34,039 bases of DNA from a virus (Duplodnaviria > Heunggongvirae > Uroviricota > Caudoviricetes). The notes beneath the pieces were generated by a model. It did no database searches. It was not told the origin of the DNA and saw only the letters and a list, made by a program, of their open reading frames with translations. The stretch is taken from IMG/VR virus record IMGVR_UViG_2617270939_000002; one strand, given 5' to 3'. Below, piece after piece: positions 4,149-34,039 of the stretch; the stretch's first letter is position 1, and each line of letters starts with the position of its first letter. The position numbers and the translations under genes were made by a program.

Positions 4149-4160
4149 AGGTCGCCGCCC
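4149..4160 (-). other. Lambda-type cosN cohesive-end sequence (GGGCGGCGACCT on minus strand) with adjacent cosB-like sequence
   Basis: Reverse complement of 4149-4160 is GGGCGGCGACCT followed by TCGC...TCGCTATTTATGAAAATTTTC, about 180 bp upstream of Nu1 start as in lambda. Confidence 0.7.
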
Positions 4161-4218
4161 CGTAACAAGGCGGATCGCCGGAAAGGACCCGCAAACGATA
4201 ATAATTATCAATTGCATA

Positions 4219-4947: not shown

Positions 4948-5332
4948 GGAATATTTCCTTTTAGGCGTGAGCCTGTCGCACGGCAATGCCGCCCGAGAGG
5001 TAAACGCAACCTAACGGCATCACCCAGGCTCACTACTGAAAGACTCTCTTTGATGTGCGCGTGCGATGCGCGTAGAAGACTGATTTATCAACCTGTCTTT
5101 ATATCAGGATTCATTACCTGACTATTTGTGGGTAAAGTTCGTAGTGCGCTGATCGTGCAAAATGATTTTAGTTGGGAACAGTTCGCAACTCTGTCCCATA
5201 AAAATCAGCATATTCCCATCTATCCCATATCCAGCGCATTGACCATCGGGATACTGAAGGGAGATTCCATCATCTCTTAGAAAGATCACCATCTCTTTTG
5301 TTTCAATTTGCATATAGCTACCTGGAGGATTT

Positions 5333-5947: not shown

Positions 5948-5983
5948 ATCCAAGCCCGTTTTGTACGGGCTGTTGCATTATCA

Positions 5984-6014
5984 CAGGCACTCAGTGAATG
6001 CCTGCTGTAATGCC
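5984..6014. repeat. 31-bp direct repeat copy 1 (contains hairpin CAGGCA-N9-TGCCTG)
   Basis: caggcactcagtgaatgcctgctgtaatgcc; second copy at 6371-6401 with one mismatch. Confidence 0.6.
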
Positions 6015-13829: not shown

Positions 13830-13864
13830 TTCGGACACGGGTTCAACTCCCGCCAGCTCCACCA
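13830..13864 (+). other. 3'-terminal fragment of tmRNA (ssrA)-like sequence ending in CCA; att core, not an intact RNA gene
   Basis: TTCGGACACGGGTTCAACTCCCGCCAGCTCCACCA matches the E. coli ssrA 3' end as I recall it (one difference); upstream sequence does not match the ssrA body. Confidence 0.7.
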
Positions 13865-15542: not shown

Positions 15543-17099
15543 ATGGCTAGCGAAAATGACAAAAATCATAGAGTTAGGGTCGCGCAGTACTTGAGGATGT
15601 CTACCGACCATCAGCAATATTCTTTACATAATCAGTCCGAATATATCAAAGATTATGCTGAAAAGAACAATATGGAAATCGCTTATACCTACGATGATGC
15701 AGGTAAGAGCGGAGTCAGTATCGTAGGCAGGCATTCTTTGCAGCAGTTACTTAGCGATGTAGAACAAAAGAAAATAGATATACAGGCTGTATTATTTTAT
15801 GATGTGAGCCGTTTTGGTCGTTTTCAAAATAGTGATGAAGCGGCATATTATTCCTTTCTATTTGAGAGAAATGGTGTAGATCTTATATATTGTTCCGAAC
15901 CTATACCCACTAAAGATTTCCCTTTAGAGTCCTCTGTTATACTGAATATAAAAAGATCTAGTGCTGCATATCACAGCAGGAATTTATCTGAAAAGGTATT
16001 TATAGGGCAAGTAAATTTAATAAAGCTTGGTTATCATCAAGGCGGTATGGCTGGTTATGGGCTGAGACGTCTTTTAGTAGACGAAAATGGCATAGCTAAA
16101 GAAATATTGAGTTTCCGCAAAAGAAAGAGTATTCAAACAGATAGGGTAATATTAATTCCGGGACCAAAAAATGAAATAAAAATTGTAAATAGAATATATG
16201 ATCTCTTTATAGATAATAACGTCCCAGAATTCATTATTGCTGAGAGATTAAATGAACAGAACATACCTGCAGAAAATGGAACATTATGGACTCGTGCAAA
16301 AATACATCAAATTTTGACAAATGAAAAATATATTGGAAACAACATATATAACAAAACCTCATCTAAATTAAAAAGTAGGCTTGTAAAAAACCCCAAACAT
16401 GAATGGGTTAGATGTGACAAGGCATATAAACCTATTATTTCAAAGAAAAAATACAATAAAGCTCAAGAAATAATTCAGCTCCGATCCATTCATTTGACTA
16501 ATGAAGATCTATTAGAAAAACTAAAACAAAAATTAGAATCTAATGGAAAACTATCAGGCTTTATCATTGATGAAGATGATACAGGCCCTTCATCTTCTGT
16601 TTATAGAACCCGATTTGGTGGTCTTTTAAGAGCATATACTTTGATTGGTTATAAGCCAGAACATGATTACAGCTATCTCAAAATAAATGAAGCACTAAGA
16701 TCATTTCACTCAGAGATAATTGAGGATTTTAAGGGTGAAATTTTAAAAAGTAACTGTCATATAGACGAGTATAAATATGCCCCAATGCTTTACATCAATG
16801 ATGAGTTTTTAATTTCCGTCCTTGTTACTAAATGCATACATATGAAATCAGGTAAACTTAGATGGAAAGTCCGGTTTGATAACTCACAGAAAGCAGACAT
16901 AACAATTGTTATACGAATGAATTCACAAAATATTTCACCTCTTGATTTTTATATCATACCAAAGATTGAAAACGAATATAATAAAATGTGCATGACGGAA
17001 ACAAACAACATTCGATTAGATCTCTATAGATTTGATAATCTTGATAAACTTCTACAAATTATTACTCGCATGAAAGTGAGGGAACTATATGCTGCCTGA
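15543..17099 (+). CDS. Large serine recombinase (resolvase/invertase catalytic domain plus recombinase and zinc-ribbon domains)
   Basis: VAQYLRMSTDHQ catalytic serine motif near N-terminus; 518 aa; AT-rich. Confidence 0.85.
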   Translation: MASENDKNHRVRVAQYLRMSTDHQQYSLHNQSEYIKDYAEKNNMEIAYTYDDAGKSGVSIVGRHSLQQLLSDVEQKKIDIQAVLFYDVSRFGRFQNSDEAAYYSFLFERNGVDLIYCSEPIPTKDFPLESSVILNIKRSSAAYHSRNLSEKVFIGQVNLIKLGYHQGGMAGYGLRRLLVDENGIAKEILSFRKRKSIQTDRVILIPGPKNEIKIVNRIYDLFIDNNVPEFIIAERLNEQNIPAENGTLWTRAKIHQILTNEKYIGNNIYNKTSSKLKSRLVKNPKHEWVRCDKAYKPIISKKKYNKAQEIIQLRSIHLTNEDLLEKLKQKLESNGKLSGFIIDEDDTGPSSSVYRTRFGGLLRAYTLIGYKPEHDYSYLKINEALRSFHSEIIEDFKGEILKSNCHIDEYKYAPMLYINDEFLISVLVTKCIHMKSGKLRWKVRFDNSQKADITIVIRMNSQNISPLDFYIIPKIENEYNKMCMTETNNIRLDLYRFDNLDKLLQIITRMKVRELYAA

Positions 17100-17985
17100 A
17101 AAAAATGAATTCCCAATAATTCAAATTGAGATTGCAAAAATAAAATTTCTTAACCCACGAACAAGAAATAAGTTAGTGCATGAAGAAATAAAGGAAAGCA
17201 TAAAAAAAAGAGGATTAAGCAAGCCTATAAGCGTAAGAGCTATTGATGAAGGCGATTTCAAATATGCTTTAATTTGTGGTCAAGGGAGAATAGAGGCTCT
17301 CGTTGCATTAGGTGAAACTATTATTCCAGCAATTATAAGAGATGTATCAGAAGAAGATGCTTACGTTATGAGTTTAGTTGAAAACATTGCAAGGAGAAGA
17401 CCACGTTCTAATGAGTTATTACAGGTGATTAAAGACATGAAAATCAGAGGACTTTCAGACTCCGAAATAAGTGAGATTACTGGATATTCATCGAACTGGG
17501 TGAGCAGTATTAATATGCTACTTGATAAGGGAGAGCATAAACTTCTCTCAGCAGTCGAACGGGGTAATTTGCCTCTGTATCTCGCAGTGCAATTTGCAAG
17601 ATGTGAAACTGAGGAAGCACAAGATATTCTTACCGAAGCATATGATAAAAAATTAATAAAAAGTCGGGACATTATAAAGATAAAACACATTCTAAATCAA
17701 AGAACAGTTGGGAATAAAGGTGCAAAAGCAGCCGGATTTTATTATCACAAACCATCAAAAAGGATGACTGCAGAGGAGTTGATTGAGCTTTATGAAAATA
17801 GTATCGCTGAACATAAATCTGTTTATAACAACTCAAAATTCATAAAAACCAACCTACTAATAGTAAATGAGATTTTTAACATCATAATGATGAATAAAAG
17901 CTTTCAACATATACTTGAACAAGAGAATCTTTCAGAACTACCATCTCAGATATTAACCCCAATAAACAAAGAGGTATTAAAATGA
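17089..17985 (+). CDS. ParB-like N-terminal domain protein with HTH (paralog 1)
   Basis: ISVRAIDEGDFKYALICGQGRIEALVALGETIIPAIIRDVSEEDAYVMSLVENIARR matches ParB/Spo0J N-domain pattern; 11-nt overlap with recombinase. Confidence 0.7.
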   Translation: MLPEKNEFPIIQIEIAKIKFLNPRTRNKLVHEEIKESIKKRGLSKPISVRAIDEGDFKYALICGQGRIEALVALGETIIPAIIRDVSEEDAYVMSLVENIARRRPRSNELLQVIKDMKIRGLSDSEISEITGYSSNWVSSINMLLDKGEHKLLSAVERGNLPLYLAVQFARCETEEAQDILTEAYDKKLIKSRDIIKIKHILNQRTVGNKGAKAAGFYYHKPSKRMTAEELIELYENSIAEHKSVYNNSKFIKTNLLIVNEIFNIIMMNKSFQHILEQENLSELPSQILTPINKEVLK

Positions 17986-18878
17986 TTCAGATACGTTTTG
18001 GCGATAATTTTATTTACCTGGAAACTAATAAGTTAATTCCATCTAAGGAATTATTAGAAAACGTAAAGCGAAGCCATAAATATCATCAAATAGTTACCTC
18101 TATCGAAAGCTTAGGTATTATTGAACCAATAATAGTATTCTATGACAAAGATAAAGATGTCACTAAGATACTTGATGGCCATTTAAGGGTTGAGGCTTTA
18201 AAAGACTTAGGTATAGAAAAAGCTCCATGTATACTTTCGAGCATAGATGATGCTTTCACTCCTAACAAACAAGTGAATCATATAAATGTAGTTGAAGAAC
18301 ATAGAATGATAATTAAGTCTCTGGCAAAAGTATCAATTGAAAAACTTAGTGCTGCTTTGGGCATATCTGTTGATGCCATAAAAGATAAAGCGAATGTGAT
18401 GAACGGCATAGATCCAAGTGTAATTGCGAAACTTTCTGATAAACCTATACCTAAGGCTACATTTGACGTTTTGAGGAAAATGAAGCCAATTCGCCAAATT
18501 GAAGCAGTCGGTACAATGATTAATTTTGATAATTATAGTAAAAAATTTGCAATGAGCATCTTGGATGCAACACCGGCATCGATGATAGTAAATAAAGGGA
18601 AAAACACTCCCTATAAAAAGGATATAAAAAAAACCATACTTCGTCTGGAACAAGAAATGGCAACAACTTCGGAAGAAACGAAAAAGCTTCAAACCGAGTA
18701 TGGTTCAGATATGTTGAAATTCGTTATAATCCAGTCATATATTAATAAATTACTTGGCAATTCTAAAGTTCTTCATTGGTTCTTAGAAAACGAGGTTGAT
18801 TATCTTAATGAGTTAAAAAGAATTTCTAGAATAAATTCTTTGGATGATAAGACTCTTACTGAAAACAGCAAGTCATAG
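17982..18878 (+). CDS. ParB-like N-terminal domain protein with HTH (paralog 2)
   Basis: IIEPIIVFYDKDKDVTKILDGHLRVEALKDLGIEKAPCIL...; ATGA overlap with paralog 1. Confidence 0.65.
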   Translation: MIQIRFGDNFIYLETNKLIPSKELLENVKRSHKYHQIVTSIESLGIIEPIIVFYDKDKDVTKILDGHLRVEALKDLGIEKAPCILSSIDDAFTPNKQVNHINVVEEHRMIIKSLAKVSIEKLSAALGISVDAIKDKANVMNGIDPSVIAKLSDKPIPKATFDVLRKMKPIRQIEAVGTMINFDNYSKKFAMSILDATPASMIVNKGKNTPYKKDIKKTILRLEQEMATTSEETKKLQTEYGSDMLKFVIIQSYINKLLGNSKVLHWFLENEVDYLNELKRISRINSLDDKTLTENSKS

Positions 18879-20612: not shown

Positions 20613-22739
20613 TCATCTAACTGACTCAATGATCTTTTGTTCTATAACTCGCCCACCTTGCTTTCCAGACAAAGGACCAATTAGTACTTTAAAGTCGGCA
20701 TAGTCATCTGCCTCAGGCCTATGCTCTATAATAACAATTGCATTGAATAATTTAGATTTTTGATATATAAAATTCAGCACCTTCGAAGCCGTCTCAGAAT
20801 CAAGTCCAGCGACAGGTTCATCAATAAACAATATTTTGTTTGTTTTTCTGGACTTAGATAGTATTTCACATAATTTTATTCTACGCATTTCACCACCTGA
20901 CAGGGACTGCGTTTTTCTATTAAGTTTCAAATGTGATATTCCAAGATAATGGATAGTTTCAAGAATAGTATTAATCTTAGTGTTATTAAAAAAAGAGCTT
21001 AACTCTTTCAACTCAGTATCATATACATCTATTATATTCATACCATTAATCTGAGACTTTACTTCATCTATATTGTGGTCAAACAGTTTACCCTCACATT
21101 TATGACATGATATGTAGATATCCTTTTCAAAACCCCTTTCATATTTTATCACGCCCTTACCTTCACAAACTTTACATCCACCAAGTTTGTTTGGAAGGAA
21201 ATACTCTATATCTAATTTTGTTATATCGGAGAAAAATTCTGCAATTAATTTATTCAAATCCGTGATAGTTGCGACAGTAGAACGTCCTGTATATGATGAC
21301 AATTTTTGGCTTATATAAATCGAATCGGTAAGACTACAAATAGCTTTAGCTAAAGATGATTTCCCCGATCCGGAGATTCCAGAAAAAACAGTAACACACT
21401 CTTTAGGGATACGTATATTTTGATTAATGATGTTATTTTTATTAAGCCCTTCAAAATAATAGTAATCAGATATATTATTTTTGGGATTGAGGTTCCTTTG
21501 CGGCTGAATTTTTTCTTTTTCACAAATTTCCCCACCAGAAGAACCAGCGTATTTACCAACATGGATTTGCTGATCAGCAAGATCTATGAAATACTGCGAG
21601 TGCTCTACTAAAATAACTGTGTTTTTTTCTGATAATTTTTTTAGCTTTTGAAAGATAACTTCAAAATCGACAGGGTTAATTTGGGATGATATTTCATCGA
21701 TAACAATCAGAATACCTGTTGTATTAGATGTTAAAAGCCTGCTGAAAATAAGTTTTTGTATTTCCCCCCCAGAAAGACTGGGAATTGAACGAGACAAATT
21801 TAAATATCCCAATCCCATATTATTTATTGAGGACAACACTCTAATTAATACTGAGTCACCTATAGTTTTTTTCAGGGTATTACATAATTCAGATATAGGA
21901 GATAGTAAAAATTCATCAAATGTAAATCCTAAAACATCAAGTTGGGCTGTTTCTTGGTTAATTCTGCTTCCATTACAAAATGAGCAATTTTCTTCCTTTT
22001 TATACTTTGAATTGTTTTGGCTCCGTCCTATATTCGAATTAGCAAAAGACATTACGCCTTTATAAAAAGCTCTTCTTTGCTTCGTTTTTCCTTTGTGTTT
22101 AAATCTAAAAGATAATTTCTCAGCGCTTTCTCCATATAGTATTAGGTTTTTCTTTTCAAGTGATAGTGAATCAAAAGTATCATCTACTTTTATATTATTT
22201 TTATCACAATAGACCATAAGTAATTGGTGATAATAATCAGATAACTCACCAGTCCGCCAACATAAAAATGGTTTTTGATCTAGTCTACATTTTTCATTAA
22301 TTAATTCAGATTCATCCACACTAACTATCTCGCCAAGGCCTAAGCAGTGTGGACATTCATTTCTATAATTGTTTATTTTTAATTTATCATAATTAGGTAC
22401 TGCTACGTTTCTTTTGATTTTTAAAGATGACAAAGCTTGAGCTATATTCAGATATGAATATATAGTTGAACGAGGGTTGTTATTTGTGTTTCTTTGTGGT
22501 ATCGCAACAGCGGGAATTAACCCACTGAAATTTGCAACTTTATAATCACTTTCATTCAAATAACCGTTTTCTACAGCATCAAACTCATCTTTGCATAATT
22601 GATAAATTGATGAAAATGCTAAAGAACTTTTTCCTGCGCCCGAACGGCCATAAATAGCGGTTATTGTATTAAATGGTATAGTAACATCTAAATTTTTTAA
22701 ATTATGGGTGGCTATTCCCTCAAAAATGATCTTATTCAT
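20613..22739 (-). CDS. UvrA-like double-ABC ATPase with zinc-finger insertions (708 aa)
   Basis: Two Walker A motifs (GRSGAGKSS, GISGSGKSS), two ABC signatures (LSGGEIQKL, LSGGEMRRI), several CxxC pairs; AGAGGA RBS; ATG overlaps upstream stop as ATGAATAA. Confidence 0.85.
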   Translation of the reverse strand: MNKIIFEGIATHNLKNLDVTIPFNTITAIYGRSGAGKSSLAFSSIYQLCKDEFDAVENGYLNESDYKVANFSGLIPAVAIPQRNTNNNPRSTIYSYLNIAQALSSLKIKRNVAVPNYDKLKINNYRNECPHCLGLGEIVSVDESELINEKCRLDQKPFLCWRTGELSDYYHQLLMVYCDKNNIKVDDTFDSLSLEKKNLILYGESAEKLSFRFKHKGKTKQRRAFYKGVMSFANSNIGRSQNNSKYKKEENCSFCNGSRINQETAQLDVLGFTFDEFLLSPISELCNTLKKTIGDSVLIRVLSSINNMGLGYLNLSRSIPSLSGGEIQKLIFSRLLTSNTTGILIVIDEISSQINPVDFEVIFQKLKKLSEKNTVILVEHSQYFIDLADQQIHVGKYAGSSGGEICEKEKIQPQRNLNPKNNISDYYYFEGLNKNNIINQNIRIPKECVTVFSGISGSGKSSLAKAICSLTDSIYISQKLSSYTGRSTVATITDLNKLIAEFFSDITKLDIEYFLPNKLGGCKVCEGKGVIKYERGFEKDIYISCHKCEGKLFDHNIDEVKSQINGMNIIDVYDTELKELSSFFNNTKINTILETIHYLGISHLKLNRKTQSLSGGEMRRIKLCEILSKSRKTNKILFIDEPVAGLDSETASKVLNFIYQKSKLFNAIVIIEHRPEADDYADFKVLIGPLSGKQGGRVIEQKIIESVR

Positions 22740-23814
22740 ACTTTCCTCTACACCAATCACATTCAGGATCACGTGGAACATCTTGGACGTTAAAAGATAA
22801 ACTTCTAAGACTAAATTCGACTCTTTTATTTTCTTGTTGCAAGTGATCTACTTTCCCGGCAAGTAATTTTATAGCGTCCAAGCTTGCAAGGCTTGCAGCC
22901 AGACCTGATAGTGGTGAAAATGAACCTAATTTTCGTTTTACCCGGTGCAATTTCTTCACATTAACAAGGTCTTTGCTATTTATTTTTCCTAAAAATAGGT
23001 TAAAACAATTAAAGCATGCTGACTTAAATGGAATAATTGTCTGACCGATAAGGGTTTGATGAAGATTATATCCCCCGCCAACTATATGTGGGATATTATG
23101 AATCATACTAAAGAGGGCGATTATTTTACTGGTGTAATCCACATTAGGTTCATCAGCGCAGTTTATTATCAAATCTATATCAGAGGGTAGAATATTTCTT
23201 TTAAAAAAATCATCATCGATAATGTCATTGATAATGTCAATCTTAATATCTGGAGATATCTTTTTCAAAGAGTTGAGTAACGCTATATTTTTATCAGAGT
23301 TAATTTCATCCTCGAAATAAAACTGACGATGTAAATTACTTATATCTACATTATCGTGATCTACAAATATTATCGAACCAACATTGCAATGAGCAAGATA
23401 CGTTGCCACATTACTACCGACTGCTCCAATACCTACAATCATTACTTTTGATTTTTTAAGATTAATTATACATTCTAAAACCTCACTGGTGGTATGACAG
23501 TAGTCTTCAAATGTATTGATCATTCTATATTGTTCAGTGACAAGCTCTGCAGGGTATTGGCAATCTTGATCGATAATTATATTGTTTTCATTCAAAAACA
23601 AAGCTAATTTTTCAAGTTGTTGAATATCGATTCCTGAATAATTTGCTACAATTTCTTGAAGAGAAGTTTGCCCATCAAACATCTTTAAGAGTTCAACTAT
23701 ATTTGGAAAGTTGATTTTTATTTTTATACTTTCTCTAATATTGGATTTAAAAAACTCTACAGTATCATCATTTACGACGATACCAATACTTTGTCGCAGT
23801 CTAAAATTATTCAT
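22732..23814 (-). CDS. E1-like adenylyltransferase (ThiF/MoeB/MccB family) with PqqD-like N-terminal peptide-binding domain, paralog B (alternative GTG start at 23832)
   Basis: KVMIVGIGAVGSNVATYLAHCNVGSIIFVDHDNVDISNLHRQ nucleotide-binding motif; N-terminal LLKMFDGQTSLQEIV; C-terminal CFNC...CDWC. Confidence 0.8.
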   Translation of the reverse strand: MNNFRLRQSIGIVVNDDTVEFFKSNIRESIKIKINFPNIVELLKMFDGQTSLQEIVANYSGIDIQQLEKLALFLNENNIIIDQDCQYPAELVTEQYRMINTFEDYCHTTSEVLECIINLKKSKVMIVGIGAVGSNVATYLAHCNVGSIIFVDHDNVDISNLHRQFYFEDEINSDKNIALLNSLKKISPDIKIDIINDIIDDDFFKRNILPSDIDLIINCADEPNVDYTSKIIALFSMIHNIPHIVGGGYNLHQTLIGQTIIPFKSACFNCFNLFLGKINSKDLVNVKKLHRVKRKLGSFSPLSGLAASLASLDAIKLLAGKVDHLQQENKRVEFSLRSLSFNVQDVPRDPECDWCRGKYE

Positions 23815-24931
23815 TACAGATTTTGCATCCACTTTGTTTTACCAATTCAAAATTAGTCATTTTGCCTTCGTTTGGAAGGTATTCATACCGACTATTTACA
23901 TATGAAAATGCTGAATCATCCAACAGGAAGTGAATTAATTTCATGCAACTTAGATTAGCTGAAAAACCATTCATCATTGCTAATCCACCAGGCCCTCCTG
24001 GAATATAATTATCATAGACAGATTTTGAAAGGTCCAGTTGAGGATTATTGACTATACTATATACAGGCTTCCATCCTTTTAATGCCTTTGAAAACGTATT
24101 TTGGGCACAATCTATACAGGGTGTATGTGGAGGGAATATTAATTCTCCTGAACTCATTAAGTGGGCGTCAAATCCACCTGATACATACAGCGGAATAGCT
24201 CTTGCTTGTGCATATCTACCAAGTTTTAAAGAAGTATGACCTATATAAGGCTCATCACAAGTATTAATAATCAGATCTGTATCATCAGAAATGATAGAGG
24301 ATAGATTAGTAGTAGGTATAAGTTTTTCAAAATGTTTTGTTATTATTACTCGACTATCGATCCAACTCAAAAATTCTGACAGGACATCTACCTTTGGTTT
24401 TCCGATTTTCTTATAGTTATAATAACAATGCCTTGCTGCATTTGACTTTGAAAGGGACTTATAATCAACCAAAACTATATTTTTAACACCTGCGCGGACA
24501 AGTATTTCTATAATTTTGGCTCCTACAGCTCCACACCCAAATAAAACAACCTTTTTGCTCTCCAAGATATGTTGAGTTTCTACACCAGGTCGTTCAAGGA
24601 CAAAATCGTCCCAAAATGTAATTTGTCGTGAAAAACGAGGTTCAATATCGCAAATGTTATTTACATCATAAATAAAATGTTGATTTAGTAAAAAAGCAAT
24701 TAGTTTATCGACATCTTTTGAGCGTAGGGACCCCATCTCAGTAACTATATCATTTATAGTTTTTATACCATCAAGGCTGGCAATAAATCGAGCGACATTT
24801 TTATTAGTTTTTATTTCTAATCTATCACGCGTTGTCATCACATGAAATGTGAGTTTGACATTATCAGTATTATCTTCATTCGATATAAAAATATCCACAG
24901 TTTCTTTTATTTTATATTTTTTGGAGTCCAT
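23807..24931 (-). CDS. E1-like adenylyltransferase (ThiF/MoeB/MccB family) with PqqD-like N-terminal peptide-binding domain, paralog A
   Basis: KKVVLFGCGAVGAKIIEILVRAGVKNIVLVDYK motif; N-terminal FIASLDGIKTINDIVTEMG; C-terminal CIDC...CKIC. Confidence 0.8.
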   Translation of the reverse strand: MDSKKYKIKETVDIFISNEDNTDNVKLTFHVMTTRDRLEIKTNKNVARFIASLDGIKTINDIVTEMGSLRSKDVDKLIAFLLNQHFIYDVNNICDIEPRFSRQITFWDDFVLERPGVETQHILESKKVVLFGCGAVGAKIIEILVRAGVKNIVLVDYKSLSKSNAARHCYYNYKKIGKPKVDVLSEFLSWIDSRVIITKHFEKLIPTTNLSSIISDDTDLIINTCDEPYIGHTSLKLGRYAQARAIPLYVSGGFDAHLMSSGELIFPPHTPCIDCAQNTFSKALKGWKPVYSIVNNPQLDLSKSVYDNYIPGGPGGLAMMNGFSANLSCMKLIHFLLDDSAFSYVNSRYEYLPNEGKMTNFELVKQSGCKICNE

Positions 24932-24945
24932 TGTATATTCCCAAT

Positions 24946-24970
24946 AAAATCGCCCATCAAGGGCGATTTT
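24946..24970 (-). terminator. Perfect 10-bp hairpin (aaaatcgccc-atcaa-gggcgatttt) between small ORF and first E1-like gene; candidate attenuator/partial terminator
   Basis: Read directly; placement between a small ORF and enzyme genes is the classic precursor/processing arrangement. Confidence 0.5.
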
Positions 24971-24979
24971 GAATTTAGA

Positions 24980-25180
24980 TTAATATTGGAGAACGCCGGC
25001 GTTAACCTCCAAGTATTTTTCCCAAGCATCTAAATTCGACGCTGAGTTTTGCTCGTCGTTACCAGCTCGCGTGCATACACGAGTACAACAGTCACTACGT
25101 TCTCCAGAGCAACCACCCGTATAGTTGGCGGTAGCATTGGTATTGCTGATGACTTCAAATGTTAAATCTAAACACTGCAT
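24980..25180 (-). CDS. Small Cys-rich protein (66 aa), candidate precursor/substrate peptide of the E1-like operon
   Basis: ATG at 25180 with AAGGA RBS; MQCLDLTFEVISNTNATANYTGGCSGERSDCCTRVCTRAGNDEQ...; GC content higher than the enzyme genes, so assignment is tentative. Confidence 0.4.
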   Translation of the reverse strand: MQCLDLTFEVISNTNATANYTGGCSGERSDCCTRVCTRAGNDEQNSASNLDAWEKYLEVNAGVLQY

Positions 25181-25610
25181 ATCAGGTCCTTTGCAAGTCA
25201 ATTGATTAGCAAGCTAAGCATTCTCTTTGATATAGCTTAATTTTAAGAAAAAACTTACCCTTCATGATGATTAAATCACAAAACTTCTGTTCATGGGAAT
25301 GGTAATTTTTTGTGCGGATTCAATGCCAAATCTCATCAACAGATCGTCCTAAATAGATGCTCGGAATAGTAAAACAGTTTGAGGGAACTCAGCACGCACT
25401 GAGCGAAGCAGATCGTAGCACTTCTTCTCCGTAGCGAACGATGCCCGATACATAAAACGCTTCATAAAACCCATGACAAGACCCACACCCGCAGATTGAT
25501 CACCATGCTGATGTAGCATCGTGGTGACCGTGGCAGAGACACTGCCAAAACGCTCAGCTATGCCCGTTCATCCACTGAGCGTTGGATAAACTGGTTTACA
25601 GTTTCGAGGA

Positions 25611-26156
25611 TTGAAGACCAGAAATCGTTGCCTAAGCGATATTCTTAAAGCGTCGGCGGAACGTTCAGACAAACCCACTGGAGCTGTGCTACAGCATCTT
25701 ATTGGAGCCAAACTCCAATTGCGCTTTCCCAATGTTAAAATCGGCAGTGACAGAGCCAATGCAGCTGACTTACACACTGACCGTGAGGGTGATTTTCAGG
25801 TGGGTACTACTGCATTCCACGTGACCACCGCACCTATGGAGAAATTGATTTCGCGCTGTGTCGAAAACAAACGTGCAGGCTACAGGCCGGTCATCCTAAC
25901 TCTTGAAAGCAAAGTCATTGCAGCACGCCAGATGGCTGATAACGTTGGTATGTCTGAACAGATAGCCGTCCAGGCAGCCGAAACTTTCATCGGTAACAAT
26001 ATTGAAGAGATTGCTATCTATGACGGCGATAAAATCCGTGAGGGTCTCGCAAGACTGATACGTACGTACAACGTCCGTATCAATACTATCGAGATAGATA
26101 AATCCCTTATGATTGATGAGCCTCGTTGGATCGTTAACTTACTGACCGACTCCTGA
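25611..26156 (+). CDS. Hypothetical protein, possibly 5'-truncated gene remnant (TTG start in ORF track), in a segment of E. coli-like GC content
   Basis: 181-aa ORF without a convincing start or RBS; composition differs from flanking AT-rich DNA. Confidence 0.4.
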   Translation: MKTRNRCLSDILKASAERSDKPTGAVLQHLIGAKLQLRFPNVKIGSDRANAADLHTDREGDFQVGTTAFHVTTAPMEKLISRCVENKRAGYRPVILTLESKVIAARQMADNVGMSEQIAVQAAETFIGNNIEEIAIYDGDKIREGLARLIRTYNVRINTIEIDKSLMIDEPRWIVNLLTDS

Positions 26157-26701
26157 AATACATAGAGATCAGCAAGCTTAACGAGTCGCTTTTTTCCACC
26201 ATACCTAATCCCCAGAACTAAAGCACTACGGCTTGGTTGGGCTGGCGTAAGTCTGCACACTGGGCCTTTTGCATTATGATTTACTCAGAATATATAACCA
26301 ATATGTCGGAAAAGGTTTAAAGTGAATGATTCGTTTTGACGGGATACTTACGATTATCATAGCACCATCACATATTGTGTCTCAGACACAAAGTTGAAAA
26401 TTAAACCTGGAGTAAAAGATATAACATTCCCCCGCTACAATAAGATTCGCCTCAAACATAAAATCTTTAATGGAACACATTTCCTCCTAAGCATTGGGAA
26501 ACAAAAACCCACCAATCAACCGCGAAATAAAAAAAAGCACTTTTTGCTAAATATAAATTTATTTATATAAAACATCGCATTAAATTAATCATATAAAAAG
26601 AAAACGTTTACTTATTTTTCATTATTAAAAATAAATTTGATTTTTAATTATTTAATAATATATATTCATTCCATCAATAAAAATAATAAAGGAGAATAAA
26701 A

Positions 26702-27142
26702 ATGAAAAAACAAAACCACTCAACCCTGACAAGTTACCTCTCTAAAACAAAAAAGAATACAGACCTCTACCGCCTGTATAACCCGCACTTCTCAGTATTC
26801 TGTAAAAATAGCACTGAAGATCATGATTTTTATCTTAATTATTTTTCCAGACATATGGTGACGGAAAGAAACATTCTGACCATATTTGCTATCCATACCT
26901 TTTTCTCTTATGGCATGGACAAAAAAGAGACCATAAAAGCCTTTACTCGTTTCCTTAAAGAGGAGAATAACGACGCTTTTTATCAGTCATTTTCTTTTCG
27001 TGGCTGCAATATCATTTACACAAACAAAAAAAGAGAAGTGAAAGAGATCTCATGGTTTTCCTTTTCACGGATCTATGACGAGATCGTTAAGATAAAAGAA
27101 TATGAATACAACAATAATACCTGGCACAAAATGGCCGCTTAA
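26702..27142 (+). CDS. Hypothetical protein (146 aa), AT-rich, preceded by a strongly AT-rich upstream region
   Basis: ATG with AAGGAG RBS. Confidence 0.55.
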   Translation: MKKQNHSTLTSYLSKTKKNTDLYRLYNPHFSVFCKNSTEDHDFYLNYFSRHMVTERNILTIFAIHTFFSYGMDKKETIKAFTRFLKEENNDAFYQSFSFRGCNIIYTNKKREVKEISWFSFSRIYDEIVKIKEYEYNNNTWHKMAA

Positions 27143-27156
27143 AAAAGGAGCCCCCC

Positions 27157-28110
27157 ATGAGTAACTATACAGAAGATAATTTATTTGACAGCATATCTAA
27201 AAAAGACGTCCAGAATTGCATTGCTGCAGGCATTGACATTAACACACTAAATGAACACGGTGAAAACGCCCTTTTCGGTTGCGACAGTATCGGGGCTTTA
27301 AAAGCTATGATTGAAGCAGGCATAGCGCTGAACCATACAGATTGTTATGGTAATAATGCCCTGTTTAGCAGAAAAAGCCCACGAGCACTGGGGCTATTGA
27401 TAAAATCAGGTATTAACGTTCATCACAAAAATAATAAAGGCCTGTCCTGTCTTCACTGGCAGCACTACGACATAGATTGTGCGGAACTCCTCATTAACGC
27501 GGGCGTTGATATCCACAGCACAGATAATGAAGGTCAAACGCTTCTTTACAACCTCCACGATCATGACGTCTTTGATTACTGGGTAAATAAAGGGTGTGAC
27601 ATAAACCACAGAGATTATAATGGCAAAGCGGTGCTGGACCTTCCGACTGACGACGAGTGGTGGATATATGATTTCAGTATTAATGCCCTCAAACGCCATG
27701 TTGACAGAATAGACAGCACACCAGTTTTATTTAAACATATTTCAACTGAGGCGTTGCCTCTGATTGCTTTGCTTCATGAAAAAGGGCGTAATATCCTTAT
27801 CGCTGAACACTGTACCTTCGCATTATATGTCAAAAACATGAAGTCCTTCTTTACCTCACTGAAAAAATATACCGATATCAGTCATGTTCAGTTTTATAAT
27901 TGTTATCATGACAGACATATTGGTGTCTATACTGGTATTGAGACAGTAAAATGGTTTATTCGAAATGGTATCAGAGTGGACGACGATATACTGAGACAGC
28001 GTGCTGACTCTGATAAAATTTTTGACTATATAAGCGGAAGAGAGAAAAAAGATTTTCTCAAAATCATGAAACCAGAAATCACCCATGCGCCGAAGAGAAA
28101 AAGAATGTGA
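27157..28110 (+). CDS. Ankyrin-repeat protein (N-terminal ANK repeats, unknown C-terminal domain)
   Basis: Repeated ...G(I/V)(D/N)(I/V)N..(D/N)..G..AL(F/Y/H)... units (NEHGENALF, DCYGNNALF, NNKGLSCLHW, DNEGQTLLY, DYNGKAVLDL). Confidence 0.75.
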   Translation: MSNYTEDNLFDSISKKDVQNCIAAGIDINTLNEHGENALFGCDSIGALKAMIEAGIALNHTDCYGNNALFSRKSPRALGLLIKSGINVHHKNNKGLSCLHWQHYDIDCAELLINAGVDIHSTDNEGQTLLYNLHDHDVFDYWVNKGCDINHRDYNGKAVLDLPTDDEWWIYDFSINALKRHVDRIDSTPVLFKHISTEALPLIALLHEKGRNILIAEHCTFALYVKNMKSFFTSLKKYTDISHVQFYNCYHDRHIGVYTGIETVKWFIRNGIRVDDDILRQRADSDKIFDYISGREKKDFLKIMKPEITHAPKRKRM

Positions 28111-28174
28111 TAATTTAGCCCTTTATTCAGCCTGAGCAGGTTTCATTTCATGATAACTGACCTGATAAATCCTG

Positions 28175-28207
28175 ATAAGTAAGCCATTCAGCCAATGGCT
28201 TACTTAT
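28175..28207 (+). terminator. 14-bp perfect inverted repeat followed by T-run; terminator after ANK gene and/or oriT-like inverted repeat upstream of mobC
   Basis: ataagtaagccatt-cagcc-aatggcttacttat then ttttatttt. Confidence 0.5.
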
Positions 28208-28307
28208 TTTATTTTCTCTGATTATATGCATTATATTTCACATGACGTATTGACTTATTTACATCATCCGTTATCTGTAGTAATAAACAAACAATACAAG
28301 GATAACT

Positions 28308-28697
28308 ATGAATAATGACATAACAAGACTATCAAGGCGTGGAAAATTCCATACTGACAAACTTCCGCCTGATGAAAGACGAAGCCACTGCGTCAGTGTC
28401 AGATTAAATGAAGAAGAATTAACTATTCTCGACAGTAAAAGAGGCCAGTATAAAAAAGGGGAATGGTTGAGAATGGCTTCCCTGAACAAACTCCCACCGG
28501 TTCTGCCCGAAATAAATCGCGAAGCATGGATTAAACTCGGCAGCCTTTCCCAGGATTTAAATTACCTACTGAATCATCTTGACAAGAAAAGTCCTGACAG
28601 CGAACTAACCCGTACAGAACTCTTTGCCCTGCGCAGACAAATCAAAACGCTTCGGGATCACCTTATTCCCTCAACATTTCTGGAGCAAGACCGATGA
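28308..28697 (+). CDS. MobC-like relaxosome accessory protein (ribbon-helix-helix)
   Basis: RRSHCVSVRLNEEELTILDSKRGQYKKGEWLR pattern; ATGA coupling to relaxase. Confidence 0.65.
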   Translation: MNNDITRLSRRGKFHTDKLPPDERRSHCVSVRLNEEELTILDSKRGQYKKGEWLRMASLNKLPPVLPEINREAWIKLGSLSQDLNYLLNHLDKKSPDSELTRTELFALRRQIKTLRDHLIPSTFLEQDR

Positions 28698-29953
28698 AAG
28701 GCATGCAGAAAATAAAAAGGGGTAAACAGTTTGCAGGAGTGGTGCTTTACAGCCTCAAATCCGGTCCACACCACAACGTTATGCCTTATGTCATCGGTGG
28801 TAATATGATCGGAAGTTCGGTGGCTGAGCTTATCAGTGAGTTTGAAATTTCTAAACAATTGCGTCCCGATGTCGCCAAACCCGTCTGGCATAATTCACTT
28901 CGCCTGCCAAAGGGAGAAACACTGTCAGCCAGACAGTGGGCGGCATTCGCCGACGATTATATGACCCGGATGGGGTTCACTGAAACGCACCTTCGCTGTT
29001 ATATCCTTCACGATGATACCGACGGGCAGCATATCCATATCATTGCAAGTCGCATTAACATGGCCGGTGGAAAGCTGTACCTGGGGAAAAATGAAAATCT
29101 CATCAGCACCCGCATTATCAGCGAACTGGAGCGAATACACGGACTCACTGAAACAACACCTGCAACCAGCAGTCGCCCTCAGGCTAAAAGAAAACCCTCA
29201 CGCAATGAGCTGATGATGGCAGAACGAACAGCAGTTCCCTGCCCTAAGTCTCAGTTGCAGACCCTGATTGATAATGTCTTAACGCATCGTCCCGATTTAC
29301 TGACTTTTATCGACATGCTGGAACAGAAAGGTGTGACCTGTAAACCCAATATCGCGTCGACCGGAAAAATGAATGGATTTTCATTTCAGTACCAGGGTAT
29401 TGCCTTTAAAGCGTCTCAGCTTGGAAAAAAGTATGGCTGGTCTTCTCTGCAAACGCAGATTGATTTTACACCAGAGCACCTGGCCTTACTGAAAAAAGAG
29501 CAACAACAGACTGTACCAGTGCCAGTGCCAGTGCCAGTGCCAGTGCCAGTGCCAGTGCCAGTGCCAGTGCCAGTGCCAGTGCCAGTGCCAGTGCCATCAT
29601 GCGAGCCTGAAGAACAGGTTGCAAACCGGGAAACGATTCTGGAGAAAATCCTTCAGCTTGAAGAAAAAATTCGTCTGGAAAGACAACAGGAAACAGTGGG
29701 TGTCATTCAACTCAGGAGCAAACTGCACAATACAGCTCGTCAGATACCCCGCCAGCGTCGTCTGCATTCGTGGTTTGTATTGCTCGGCCATATTGTGGCA
29801 CTTCTCAGGCGCAGGGGCATGTCTCTGTTACATGCCACTGCACATCCTTTCCACCAAATCCTGCACCTGCATCTTCTGACACCCTGTCATTCCATGACAA
29901 CAAATCCCATTAAAGAACAATTAGTTAAAAATAACCCCCATCCTGCACCATAA
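28694..29953 (+). CDS. Mobilisation relaxase (MobA/VirD2-like) containing a (VP)14 linker
   Basis: HLRCYILHDDTDGQHIHIIASRINMAGGKLY histidine-triad region; follows MobC-like gene. Confidence 0.75.
   Translation: MKGMQKIKRGKQFAGVVLYSLKSGPHHNVMPYVIGGNMIGSSVAELISEFEISKQLRPDVAKPVWHNSLRLPKGETLSARQWAAFADDYMTRMGFTETHLRCYILHDDTDGQHIHIIASRINMAGGKLYLGKNENLISTRIISELERIHGLTETTPATSSRPQAKRKPSRNELMMAERTAVPCPKSQLQTLIDNVLTHRPDLLTFIDMLEQKGVTCKPNIASTGKMNGFSFQYQGIAFKASQLGKKYGWSSLQTQIDFTPEHLALLKKEQQQTVPVPVPVPVPVPVPVPVPVPVPVPVPVPSCEPEEQVANRETILEKILQLEEKIRLERQQETVGVIQLRSKLHNTARQIPRQRRLHSWFVLLGHIVALLRRRGMSLLHATAHPFHQILHLHLLTPCHSMTTNPIKEQLVKNNPHPAP
29514..29597 (+). repeat. Hexanucleotide microsatellite (GTACCA + 13 x GTGCCA) encoding (Val-Pro)14 inside relaxase
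   Basis: Read directly from sequence. Confidence 0.95.
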
Positions 29954-30138
29954 GTTAACTAATCCATATTTTAGTGATAGTCAATAAAATATTGATCGTT
30001 TATATAGATCGATAATCTTGTTATGATAGTTATAACCTATTAACAGAGATCCATCGATCGGTACAAGCAATTTTACTAAAGCGGATCATTCATCGAAAAT
30101 GTTCAAAAATACATCACCTTAAATCAGGCCACGGAGTC

Positions 30139-30414
30139 ATGATGGATAATAAAACGATTAGCTGCCCCTTCTGCTTTACACAAAGCCCGCACGGCGTGCG
30201 GATTTGCAAAGGCTGCCATGCAAAAGTCGCCTACGGTGAGAGTCCGCTCAGTGTGGCATTCCTGTTTCAATTCGTGGCATTAGCTCTCGCCTGGTTAGTA
30301 TTTTCATTGACCGGCAGCACTCCTGTCTCAGTCATTACGTTTTTTGCCAGCGTCATTATTCTTATCTGCATTATTAAAAAGAAATATGCAGACAGAGTTG
30401 TTTTTATACGGTGA
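30139..30414 (+). CDS. Small membrane protein with N-terminal zinc-ribbon (CPFC...CKGC) and two TM segments
   Basis: GGAG RBS; ORF. Confidence 0.5.
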   Translation: MMDNKTISCPFCFTQSPHGVRICKGCHAKVAYGESPLSVAFLFQFVALALAWLVFSLTGSTPVSVITFFASVIILICIIKKKYADRVVFIR

Positions 30415-30463
30415 TATTAATTTCATACCACCGCAAACATAAAAAATTAATATGAGAGAACTT

Positions 30464-30850
30464 ATGAACAGATTCATGATTTCTGTGTTTTTTATTTCTG
30501 CTTTCCTTATTTCTGGTTGTTCAACATCAGGCAACCAGCATCTAAAAAAAGAAACAGCACAAAGTCTGCAGTCGAAAATTATAAAAAATAAAACAACGAA
30601 ATCAGAAATCATTACCGCATTAGGTGAGCCCGAAACCAAAACTACACTTGATAGTGGCAATGAAGAATGGACTTATTCGATGGATAACAATCAGTTTGAT
30701 GCCACCACATTCATTCCAGTGGTCGGGTTGCTGACAGGCGGTTCACAGACGCAGGCCAAAACGCTGGAAATCGAATTTAAAGGCGAAACGGTCAGTAAGT
30801 GGACGATCTCTGAAAACAACAGCAAGATGAAAACCGGCCTTATTCAATAA
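30464..30850 (+). CDS. Lipoprotein (signal peptide with LISGC lipobox)
   Basis: MNRFMISVFFISAFLISGC...; GAGAG RBS before ATG at 30464. Confidence 0.6.
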   Translation: MNRFMISVFFISAFLISGCSTSGNQHLKKETAQSLQSKIIKNKTTKSEIITALGEPETKTTLDSGNEEWTYSMDNNQFDATTFIPVVGLLTGGSQTQAKTLEIEFKGETVSKWTISENNSKMKTGLIQ

Positions 30851-30876
30851 CGTACTCTACAGTCTGGGATTATTTT

Positions 30877-31197
30877 ATGAAAACATATGCATTTACCACA
30901 CTCATTGCGTCCATTTTTTTGCTGAGTGGCTGTACCGGTGAACCGTCTGAGCAGGATATTTACACTGCGATGAATAAGGTCATGGAGCAGACGAATGCCA
31001 TCGTTAAATCCATAGCAGGTAAAGATGTCCCGAAAGACGCACTGCGGGAATTAAAATCTGTCAAAAAGCATGACTGCGAAAAACTATCGGATAAAAGCTA
31101 TAAATGCAATGTAACAGCTGTTGTCGATAACGAAAAACGCACAGCGGCTGTCACGCTGATCAAAACGGATGATGGCTGGCAGGTCATTGATAAGTAA
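30877..31197 (+). CDS. Lipoprotein (signal peptide with LLSGC lipobox)
   Basis: MKTYAFTTLIASIFLLSGC... Confidence 0.6.
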   Translation: MKTYAFTTLIASIFLLSGCTGEPSEQDIYTAMNKVMEQTNAIVKSIAGKDVPKDALRELKSVKKHDCEKLSDKSYKCNVTAVVDNEKRTAAVTLIKTDDGWQVIDK

Positions 31198-31333
31198 GAC
31201 CACAGTAAAACAATCCCGCCAGGCAGGACACCAGACCGGTGGCTCCTGCCTTTTTAATGCCCGGTAATGTCTTGCGGGAAACGACTGCTTTTATGTCACT
31301 CTGCCATCCCCTGTCCAGTACGTATCCGCTGCC

Positions 31334-31759
31334 TCACAGCCTTTTCCTGACCACGGATCCTGGTGGTGTATAAGCCAGAGAACGTGCAATGCGTTTCTTT
31401 TCATACTGTGCCAGTAAATCAGCATAAATGTGCTCTGCTTCATCCAGATTGCCTGAAATATAATTCACGAGCGAATTCAGGCAATGCAGTAATGTGTCAC
31501 TGTTTGCGAGTTGCCTGAGCAGAGGGGCCTTCAGGGTAGAAACGACACCCATAAACATCTGCATGATATTATCAACGTGATAACACGAATTGCGATATTG
31601 CGCCCGTGAATAAAAATACTTCAGATGGTATCCAGCGAAAAGCACATAAAGTTTTCTGTAAAAAATATTGTTATTAACACTGTCGCGATGCTGTGTTATA
31701 TATTTATCAACAACAAATATAAACTTTTCTTCCTGAGAAGAAACACAAATATTACTCAT
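31334..31759 (-). CDS. Hypothetical protein (141 aa)
   Basis: ORF only. Confidence 0.45.
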   Translation of the reverse strand: MSNICVSSQEEKFIFVVDKYITQHRDSVNNNIFYRKLYVLFAGYHLKYFYSRAQYRNSCYHVDNIMQMFMGVVSTLKAPLLRQLANSDTLLHCLNSLVNYISGNLDEAEHIYADLLAQYEKKRIARSLAYTPPGSVVRKRL

Positions 31760-32214
31760 AACCCTCTCCTTTTTTGTTTTTATAATTAAGTACTATCAGC
31801 TTTAAAATTTAAATCAATACAAAATTGAAAATATTTTATTTTAAAATGACAACTATTTATTCTTTTAATACTGGAAACAGCTTACGCTGTTGCAATGTTG
31901 AGTCCGATCGATTGCATTACCACTTCCTTTTTTCAAAAGCCAGGTAGTTTCCAGATTTCAGATAAAACCCCTTCAGGAATTTTTTTGAGAGAGTGCTACG
32001 CACCGGCTCACGCCCCCGACGACAGATATATGTAGATTATTTTTACCCGTCAGATGAAAACCCAACGTTTAATCCCTCTTGCAGCGCCGCTGAGTGCCCA
32101 CAGCACTCACTCGCTGAAGCAGAAAGGATTTTTCCGAAGGGGTTCCGGCGTGAGCCGTATTAAGTTAACGGGTAAATCATGTAGTCGGGTCCACTCTTTC
32201 GCTAAACTCAGCAG

Positions 32215-32305
32215 TCTGAATCTCTGCGCGAAGCGTATTTGTGCTGAGAGCTAAACCCAACTGTCTGAACTCCTGCGCGAAGCGTATTTCTACTGACAGT
32301 TAAAC
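32215..32305. repeat. Two tandem 42-bp direct repeats (period 49 bp, about 80 percent identical)
   Basis: tctgaatctctgcgcgaagcgtatttgtgctgagagctaaac / tctgaactcctgcgcgaagcgtatttctactgacagttaaac. Confidence 0.7.
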
Positions 32306-32466
32306 ACTATAGCAATGTTCTGAAGCCCAGTGGCGCAACATACAGGTGCGCAGGCTTCACTTAAGGAATAATATTACGAAGGAAAATCAGCAATAGCAGT
32401 GTTTATCAAACTGGCTTTGTTGAATAAATCAGATTTCGGGTACCGAAGCAGTCCTCTGCGGAGAAA

Positions 32467-32804: not shown

Positions 32805-33200
32805 ATGTCTAACACTAACGCCAATTTTGAGATGACCGGGATCCTGTTAGGGCAAGAAGTCCGTAAACGTAAAACTCCTCAGGAGAAGATCGCCATTATC
32901 CAGCAGACGATGGAGCCGGGTATGAATGTCTCCCATGTCGCCCGCCTGCATGGTATCCAGCCCAGCCTGCTGTTTAAGTGGAAGAAGCAATATCAGGAAG
33001 GCAGCCTCACCGCCGTTGCGGCTGGAGAGGAAGTCGTTCCTGCTTCTGAGCTTACTGCTGCTCTGAAGCAGGTCCGGGAGCTTCAGCGCCTTCTGGGCAA
33101 GAAGACGATGGAAGTTGAGATCCTGAAAGAAGCCGTGGAGTACGGTCAGTCGCGAAAATGGATAGCGCACGCGCCCTTGTTGCCAAAGGACGGGGAATAG
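32805..33200 (+). CDS. IS3-family transposase OrfA (IS2 InsC-like, HTH)
   Basis: [53 protein letters not shown]...[17 protein letters not shown]. Confidence 0.85.
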
Positions 33201-34039
33201 CCATGGTCAGCCGGACCATGGGCGTGTCGCGTGCGCAACTGTCACTGCGGATTAACCGTTCTGCCGACTGGCAGGACAGGCGCTGTAACCGGCGTAATGA
33301 AGAAGCAGACGCAGAAATACTGTCGGCTATCCTCAACATTATCAGCGATATGCCGAGTTATGGTTATCGACGCGTGTGGGGCATCCTGCGCAAGCAACGT
33401 CGCACAGAGGGACAGCCACCTGTGAATGCCAAACGGCTTTACAGGATAATGAGCGAGCATAACCTGTTGTTGTTGCATCACAAACCAGAGCGACCGAAGC
33501 TTGAACATAAGGGCAAGATAGCGGTGGCAGAAAGCGATATGCGCTGGTGTTCAGATGGCTTCGAGTTCGGCTGCGACAACGGCGAAAAACTGCGGGTAAC
33601 GTTCGCGCTGGACTGCTGCGACCGTGAGGCCATAGACTGGGCAGCAAGCACGGGAGGCTATGACAGTTCGACCGTGCAGGATGTGATGCTGAGGTCGGTG
33701 GAAAAGCGCTTCGGCGACAGGTTGCCCGACACAGCGGTGCAGTGGCTGACGGATAACGGTTCAGCGTATACCGCGTATGAAACGCGGAGGTTCGCGAGAG
33801 AGCTGAATCTGGAGCCCTGCACAACAGCGGTGAGCAGCCCGCAGAGTAATGGCATGGCCGAACGGTTCGTGAAAACGATGAAAGAAGACTATATCGCGTT
33901 CATGCCAAAACCGGATGTGAGAACAGCACTGCGAAACCTTGCAGTAGCGTTCACGCATTACAATGAAAACCACCCGCACAGCGCGCTGGGATATCACTCC
34001 CCGAGGGAATACCGGCGGCAGCGGACATCGTTAACTTAA
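33158..34039 (+). CDS. IS3-family transposase OrfB (IS2 InsD-like, DDE catalytic domain)
   Basis: RWCSDGFEF...[18 protein letters not shown]...WLTDNGS...[15 protein letters not shown]...[14 protein letters not shown]. Confidence 0.85.

Follow-up and report, generated by a model that had tools for sequence, protein, structure and literature searches.

The orfA-ank operon in the island backbone

We describe here a pair of genes, orfA and ank, that lies directly upstream of the mobilisation (mob) genes of a genomic island in a 34,039-nucleotide stretch of DNA filed as a viral record (IMG/VR record IMGVR_UViG_2617270939_000002), the whole of which is referred to below as the window. Read from left to right, the window consists of prophage DNA, genes for an integrase, a recombinase and ParB proteins, cargo genes, orfA-ank, the mob genes, a run of small open reading frames (ORFs) and an IS3 element. 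Judged by its gene content the island is an integrative mobilizable element (IME), with a tyrosine integrase, a serine recombinase, a relaxase and a NikA-like protein, a chromosomal location and a cargo that differs between elements; no type IV secretion system (T4SS, mating-pair-formation) genes were found within the window. Hochhauser et al. (PMC10121019) described IMEs of this kind at the tmRNA hotspot, and a preprint on the PIME family describes a distinct IME family carrying trbJ and trbL. The features of the orfA-ank and mob region are collected in Table 1.

Table 1. Coordinates of features in the orfA-ank and mob region, counted from the first letter of the window
Feature	Position	Strand	Description
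Conserved backbone block	26525-32404	+	orfA, ank, mobC, relaxase, three small ORFs, 141-aa minus-strand ORF
Predicted promoter/leader of the orfA-ank operon	26525-26701	+	Conserved, 13% GC; also left boundary of island backbone
orfA	26702-27142	+	146-aa ORF, ATG start
ank	27157-28110	+	317-aa ankyrin protein, ATG start
ank residues 1-160	27157-27636	+	N-terminal cap and five ankyrin repeats of 30-31 residues
ank residues 161-304	27637-28068	+	Linker helix and degenerate ankyrin-like repeats; no catalytic domain found
ank residues 305-317 and stop codon	28069-28110	+	Disordered basic tail ending P-x-[RK]-[KR]-R-[LMI]
Hairpin of 14-15 bp with T-run	28174-28208	+	Terminator scan and inverted-repeat search; likely intrinsic terminator of orfA-ank
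Intergenic block TTGACTTATT ... GTTATCTGTAGTAATAAAC	28209-28307	+	Probable mob promoter and presumed oriT region
MobC/NikA-like accessory protein	28308-28697	+	Pfam NikA-like, below cut-off
MobA/VirD2-type relaxase	28694-29953	+	Pfam Relaxase, 2e-23

A preliminary description of this DNA, made from the letters alone, had placed a 146-aa ORF directly before a 317-aa ankyrin protein, and both ORFs are present as it gave them, separated by a gap of 14 nt with AAGGAG 7 nt ahead of the ank ATG. The strongly AT-rich DNA that it reported upstream is equally real: the leader has a GC content far below the 42% of the window as a whole and the lowest of any 177-bp segment in the 34 kb, with only 0.01% of 177-bp windows in the stretch as low. 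The proposed start of the unit at 26260 has to be moved, as the conserved unit begins at 26525 and the segment 26260-26524 is not common to other elements. Within the leader a promoter scan found a sigma-70-like site (TTGATT at 26637-26642, an 18 nt spacer and TATATT ending at 26666), the motif AGCACTTTTTG near the left edge is invariant, and orfA is preceded by a strong ribosome-binding site (Shine-Dalgarno sequence AAGGAG at 26689-26694) that is invariant among elements. The leader is 80-88% identical in class-II elements, despite an orfA protein that is only ~70% identical there, and by these features the expression signals of orfA-ank appear to be strong and conserved. None of the known RNA families was found within 25000-28400. 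On the other side of the pair, the position of the hairpin 3′ of ank is kept with a changed sequence in four other loci (L001, L010, L014 and L008), which fits a terminator; this hairpin is the likely intrinsic terminator of orfA-ank, and it may also serve as an oriT inverted repeat. As read from its signals, orfA-ank is a self-contained accessory operon with its own promoter and terminator, and forms part of the transfer module of the IME.

Comparison with other islands indicates that the pair belongs to the backbone of the element and is not loose cargo. Homology detected by blastn to L008, L010 and L014, which have unlike cargo and other integration sites, starts exactly at 26525 and ends at 32404, which makes the AT-rich stretch the left-hand end of the conserved block. 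To the left of this block lie different cargoes: ThiF/UvrA-like genes in the window, NACHT and RelA genes in E. coli MRE162, and elsewhere an ars operon or Kiwa together with a type I restriction-modification (R-M) system. Among the 16 loci in the genome_contigs set that have the mob module, which come from at least 10 genera, orfA-ank is intact and directly upstream of it in 14; in the other two, a 412-aa Ank variant occupies the slot without orfA (L036) or the copy is decayed (L031). An Ank gene is kept in the slot in every examined relative with an intact mob module. The same arrangement is seen in four annotated E. coli genomes, including that of enterotoxigenic E. coli (ETEC) E24377A. A search of 5426 complete E. 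coli genomes found the mob module in 131 of them, and all 133 E. coli matches are chromosomal; 63 complete E. coli genomes have the class-I orfA-ank pair, and three genomes sampled from the remainder, ETEC E24377A among them, have the arrangement Ank328-orfA-Ank314 at the same place.

At 90% identity the two families form ~78 and ~65 clusters, all from Enterobacteriaceae where the organism is named, and the RefSeq labels for the pair are "ankyrin repeat domain-containing protein" and "hypothetical protein"; the proviso in the preliminary description that Ank might turn out to be a housekeeping paralogue does not apply. No true plasmid record contains Ank at full length. In PLSDB the one full-length match is OX345050.1 (L002), a linear Salmonella record of 3.6 kb with a plasmid label, which consists of an orfA-ank-mobC-relaxase fragment of 60-75% aa identity and is probably a mis-binned chromosomal contig.

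The two proteins and their allele classes

The preliminary description counted about five ankyrin-like repeats in Ank, and these are supported by Pfam scores above the gathering cut-offs for Ank_4 (36.3 bits against 22.7), Ank_2 (29.4 against 27.3) and Ank (21.3 against 21.1). In the predicted structure Ank is a helix-loop-helix/beta-hairpin solenoid whose fold matches ankyrin only, with a modelled linker helix at residues 165-180, an alpha/beta region at 190-304 and a disordered tail at 305-317, where the pLDDT falls to 57-69. The tail has a pI of 11.1, and its terminal motif is kept in an alignment of 36 homologues. Residues 261-300 (VKWFIRNGIRVDDDIL...) are the best-conserved portion of the protein.

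What had been called an uncharacterised C-terminal half consists instead of divergent ankyrin-like repeats. A profile of residues 161-317, built from 13 diverse homologues and searched against 1.84 billion representative proteins, yielded only 32 matches, and six of the seven distant matches that were scanned are canonical multi-ankyrin proteins, matched in 3-13 separate stretches by profile positions ~83-132. Because the distant matches are multi-ankyrin proteins, and no PDB sequence or Pfam family matched this half, we regard it as a degenerate continuation of the ankyrin solenoid and not as an enzyme or a separate domain. A weak 82-residue PADLOC match to a type IIG model (E = 1.4e-4) had raised the possibility of an enzyme or a fragment of a type IIG R-M system; this was rejected, as it is backed neither by Pfam, nor by PDB profiles, nor by the N6_Mtase-like neighbours of orfA relatives. 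Variability between alleles peaks at offsets -2, -1, +1 and +6 to +12 from the repeat glycine, offsets that fall in the beta-turn and at the end of helix 1, where ankyrin repeats classically bind their targets, and the framework and residues 261-300 are conserved. By its predicted architecture, then, Ank is a protein-binding solenoid with a variable concave face (residues 1-160), constant repeats (261-300) and a basic tail. The suggestion of a protein-binding module of a mobile element has held up: no enzymatic domain was found in Ank, and the pair lies in an IME with MobC and a relaxase.

Several genomes or islands hold two to four Ank paralogues. Additional copies lie at 6042-7028 in L008/L042, from 19049 onward in L042, at 19058-20110 in L016 and at 8001-9239 in L007; a 328-aa copy stands immediately upstream of orfA in class-3 islands, and a further copy is found past DUF6387 at the right end of many islands. 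Relatives of 412 aa, a type with three additional repeats, and of ~300 aa are found singly or as tandem copies within variable regions, one 412-aa copy lying beside an OLD and UvrD (Gabija-like) pair.

The orfA protein (146 aa) is basic (pI 9.3) and soluble, without a recognised fold, and the predicted order of its secondary structure is five helices, a three-stranded sheet and two further helices. Its N-terminus, MKKQN..YLSKTKKNxDLYRLYNP, is invariant, and the protein has no match in PADLOC-DB 2.0. Both orfA and Ank are predicted to be soluble, with no hydrophobic segment, transmembrane (TM) segment or signal peptide. Relatives of orfA of ~153 aa (43% identity) are found, sometimes in two copies, on plasmids of 22-34 kb (L003-L006, L039 and L041) that also encode ParA, a DUF927 helicase, DotA/TraY, H-NS and RelE/NadS; downstream of these relatives two 262-aa proteins are encoded in tandem, and their match to N6_Mtase is confined to its first third. 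At least one of the plasmids is deposited as linear and bears fliC and a flagellin repressor; it resembles pBSSB1. The idea of a partner pair in the preliminary description thus needs qualification: orfA and ank do form a conserved two-gene operon, but the partnership is not obligate, given the recombinant pairs described below, the Ank gene without orfA in L036 and the orfA relatives that have other genes downstream.

Per-gene comparison by tblastn, which covered 19 loci, revealed backbone genes that are mostly 77-99% identical and mosaic. Over the same element pairs the identities are 75-100% for mobC, 77-100% for the relaxase and 84-100% for o141 (63-68% for L022), against 59-71% for orfA and 38-64% for ank between classes. 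The alleles of orfA fall into three classes and those of ank into four or five. Between classes, synonymous divergence has reached saturation, compared with 0.5-0.7 for the backbone, and dN/dS is 0.1-0.36 for orfA and ank, values that rule out "fast evolution" by positive selection as an explanation. The signal in orfA and ank is one of old, discrete allele classes with recombination, set between conserved flanks on a mosaic backbone. Recombinant pairs are represented by L016 and L017, which combine a class-2 orfA with a class-1b ank, and by L022, in which the ank next to a class-2 orfA is of a fourth class. Recent spread is indicated for class 3, whose alleles share 98-100% identity among Kluyvera, Atlantibacter, Citrobacter and E. 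coli. The classes are independent of host genus, with three of them in Citrobacter, and do not co-vary with mobC or the relaxase. Deep, discrete classes between conserved flanks are the pattern of a specificity cassette that is kept polymorphic.

A possible role at the point of transfer

We presume, by inference only, that the origin of transfer (oriT) lies between ank and mobC. Samuel et al. 2024 (PMC11541004) apply to plasmids the rule that the relaxase adjoins oriT on the lagging side, and that the leading genes are uniformly oriented and lie on the T-strand; the T-strand orientation of leading genes should, we infer, be that of the relaxase operon. The order orfA, ank, intergenic block, mobC, relaxase fits the leading-region layout of PMC11541004, and all four genes are on the plus strand, an orientation that agrees with a leading region only if oriT is between ank and mobC. 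By the lagging-relaxase rule (PMC11541004), orfA-ank would be the first genes into the recipient. The intergenic blocks TTGACTTATT ... GTTATCTGTAGTAATAAAC are invariant in five elements, in one of which Ank is only 39% identical. Two nic candidates in this region were considered and set aside, namely ATCCTG (28168-28173) and the conserved GTTATCTGTAG, neither of which has the geometry of the RP4 nic region; ATCCTG is, moreover, not conserved. The closest plasmid relaxases are of the IncQ2/MOBP type (43% identical), and the regions upstream of mobC in the nearest IncQ2 plasmids gave no usable similarity.

Given a pure binding scaffold that has a variable face, a promoter within the transfer module and the rule for leading genes, we tentatively favour a role for orfA-ank as a binder of the leading-region type that acts in establishment or counter-defence, a reading that we hold to be possible and still some way short of probable. 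Ank would bind, and then neutralise or redirect, a variable protein met on mobilisation into a new cell, the likeliest target being a component of the recipient's defence or stress response. Distinct allele classes would recognise distinct variants of this target, orfA would act as a cofactor or regulator, the pair would be the first DNA to enter the recipient, given the inferred position of oriT, and the AT-rich promoter would presumably be silenced in the resident state. We count in favour of this role also the place of the pair in the backbone, its steady linkage to the mob module, the concentration of variation on the binding face, the deeply diverged allele classes, the expansion of Ank paralogues and the conserved expression signals.

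A number of observations weigh against this role. No nic motif was located in the ank-mobC region, and to call the upstream genes a leading region rests on a rule of thumb. The searches against Pfam, NCBIfam, PHROGs, PADLOC and PDB folds turned up no homologue among the known anti-defence families (Ard, KlcA, PsiB, Acr, Ocr and others), and neither the orfA nor the Ank family was found among 50,697 phage records, where a general anti-defence factor might be expected. A single-stranded DNA (ssDNA) promoter of the Frpo/ssi type is unsupported when the template strand is folded as ssDNA (z = -0.21 over 211 nt and -1.34 over 551 nt). Relatives of Ank occur in non-mobilizable contexts, for example beside the Gabija-like pair, which fits defence as well as counter-defence; the dN/dS values carry no sign of ongoing positive selection; and neither an experiment nor a publication on the orfA-ank pair was found in the literature searched.

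Ranked close behind, and nearly as likely, is the possibility that Ank hijacks or adapts the helper plasmid, binding one of its components (a coupling protein, the relaxosome, an exclusion or a fertility-inhibition factor) in a way that favours transfer of the island, with the allele classes matching helper families. Such a role would sit well with a pair that adjoins the mob genes, both in the 14 of 16 loci and in the four annotated E. coli genomes, with families that have no members in phages and occur solely on conjugation-related elements and islands, and with discrete classes that are independent of host genus (three in Citrobacter); IMEs are known to manipulate their helpers (PMC13635750, on the SGI1 fertility inhibitor CtiC). 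However, the classes vary independently of mobC and the relaxase, Pfam and NCBIfam gave no homology to any known accessory of the relaxosome or of coupling, and some Ank relatives have no mob genes nearby. We consider it rather unlikely that the pair is a defence or exclusion module directed against phages or competing mobile elements, with Ank as the sensor and orfA as the effector. The island is indeed a carrier of defence genes, a 412-aa relative lies beside the OLD and UvrD pair, immunity determinants, too, typically come in discrete specificity classes, and Ank has a weak similarity to the PADLOC candidate PDC-M72A (5e-8); this match, however, spans the ankyrin repeats only, no effector domain or membrane segment is recognisable in orfA or Ank, L036 dispenses with orfA, and the pair belongs to the backbone, whereas defence systems fill the variable slot to its left.

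The remaining explanations are less probable again. Conjugative systems translocate proteins with positively charged C-terminal signals (PMC11288057), which keeps open an improbable reading in which Ank itself is exported by the conjugative T4SS of the helper plasmid, the tail P-x-[RK][KR]R[LMI] and the constant C-terminal repeats acting as the signal and the variable face disarming a polymorphic recipient defence; at the same low level of confidence, Ank would arrive with or ahead of the island DNA, and its allele classes would form a balanced set of specificities. We give somewhat less credence still to a toxin-antitoxin or addiction pair that stabilises the island. This would account for a tightly spaced two-gene operon in a mobile element, and the basic tail of Ank could be a protease degron after the MuA-type ClpX motif; but the partners recombine independently (L016, L017 and L022 are recombinant, and L036 has Ank without orfA), which argues against such a pair, on linear plasmids the genes that come after the orfA relatives are unrelated, Pfam, NCBIfam and PADLOC gave no match to a toxin or antitoxin family, and the sizes of the proteins are atypical. 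Least credible among the explanations considered here is an effector aimed at a eukaryotic host. The preliminary description had raised the prospect of a secreted effector, for which one could cite the ankyrin repeats, a KRKR-type basic tail (...PKRKRM) that would be a nuclear localisation signal, and weak matches to Legionella Ank effector models; these NCBIfam matches score 11-25 bits against cut-offs of 600-1400, no signal peptide, TM segment or associated secretion system was found for Ank, and the distribution, in environmental and commensal genera, tracks the island backbone and not pathotypes; the prospect finds no support. The probability left beyond these readings we assign to something else.

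Among known systems the pair may be compared first with the leading-region establishment and anti-defence genes of conjugative and mobilizable plasmids (ArdA, KlcA, PsiB, SSB and orphan methylases; PMC11541004), which it resembles in being oriented as the relaxase operon and in encoding small non-enzymatic proteins on a conjugatively moving element; it would also share their place beside oriT, opposite the relaxase, if oriT is where we presume it. It differs from them in having no sequence or fold relation and no ssDNA-promoter structure, and in residing on a chromosomal IME and not on a plasmid. The Bdellovibrio ankyrin inhibitor or immunity protein Bd3460 (PDB 5cea) has only a generic fold resemblance to Ank (21% identity); at 193 residues it lacks the degenerate C-terminal repeats and the basic tail, and it is unrelated in genomic context and in its partner. 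The ANK/PRANC (F-box-like) host-range factors of poxviruses likewise combine variable N-terminal ankyrin recognition with a constant C-terminal module, and are multi-copy in a mobile genome. With these Ank shares an analogy only, as no PRANC or F-box domain was detected in it and its biology is bacterial, with no ubiquitin system. The Legionella and Coxiella Dot/Icm effectors AnkH, AnkX and AnkY share with Ank the ankyrin repeats, a type IV link and a C-terminal tail that is possibly a translocation signal, but Ank scores far below the cut-offs of the effector models, has no Dot/Icm system and is confined to islands of Enterobacteriaceae. PDC-M72A, finally, shares ankyrin repeats with Ank over residues 18-128, the rest of its 392-position model being unmatched, and no partner gene of this candidate was identified.

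In Enterobacteriaceae, defence systems and resistance genes are carried to a large extent by IMEs at the tmRNA site and other hotspots, and the establishment of these elements is poorly understood. The orfA-ank pair offers a concrete candidate for an establishment, counter-defence or helper-manipulation factor. Should the favoured role in establishment or counter-defence be true, a repeat-scaffold binder with exchangeable specificity classes would join the leading-region repertoire, and the leading-region concept would extend from plasmids to chromosomal islands; should the pair prove neutral for transfer, it would be merely a family of narrow range.

Other features of the window

An E. coli origin, hinted at in the preliminary description, is not established for the island itself, whose best nucleotide match is Enterobacter adelaidei (96-98%, against 91-92% for complete E. 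coli genomes), though the flanking prophage matches E. coli. Prophage DNA, including a terminase small subunit gene, extends from position 1 to ~13.8 kb, with 3774-6000 matching E. coli at 99.8%. Ahead of the integrase an ssrA-like attachment sequence is represented by no more than its final ~35 bp (13830-13864), and ARAGORN finds no tmRNA gene; the island seems to lie in tandem with the prophage at the ssrA site. E. coli MRE162 has the same island at ssrA, but with NACHT and RelA/SpoT cargo. On the plus strand at 15543-18878, a serine recombinase gene (518 aa) is followed by genes for two overlapping 298-aa ParB/RepB-like proteins, a trio that is 97% identical at the nucleotide level to E. 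coli MRE162, compared with only 87% for the right-hand backbone.

The cargo of the window comprises a UvrA-like ABC ATPase, two ThiF/E1-like proteins and a truncated type II restriction enzyme. The first three belong to a RiPP/microcin-like operon on the minus strand (20613-25201), in which two ThiF/MccB-like adenylating enzymes of 374 and 366 aa, each with an N-terminal extension, and then the 722-aa ATPase come after a 73-aa Cys-rich ORF (24980-25201) that has a GG motif before CSGERSDCCTRVC; the ATPase could provide self-resistance for the cluster. The PADLOC matches in this cluster are to the E1 domain and mad3 only, and the cluster is common to Enterobacter adelaidei (L015, 97.7% at the nucleotide level). 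The restriction enzyme gene (DUF4928/type II restriction endonuclease, 25611-26156, plus strand) is truncated at its N-terminus, covers positions 156-329 of a 331-position PADLOC model and has no adjoining methylase; it is also present in the island of E. coli MRE162, where it is annotated as partial, and looks like a decayed R-M remnant.

In the right-hand part of the island, the relaxase gene contains a perfect 6-bp tandem repeat, CCAGTG x 13.5 (29516-29596, plus strand), which encodes a (Pro-Val)n linker. The relaxase ranges in length from 409 to 425 aa across related islands, a spread that suggests repeat-length polymorphism. The sole other stretch of the window with less than 20% GC, at 31692-31873, overlaps the 5′ end of the 141-aa minus-strand ORF (31334-31759) and reaches upstream of it, and may represent another silenced backbone promoter. 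Past the end of the backbone at 32404, an IS3-family element (HTH_Tnp_1 at 32805-33200 and rve at 33158-34039) probably interrupts the island before the HTH/AlpA/DUF6387 end that is seen in its relatives.

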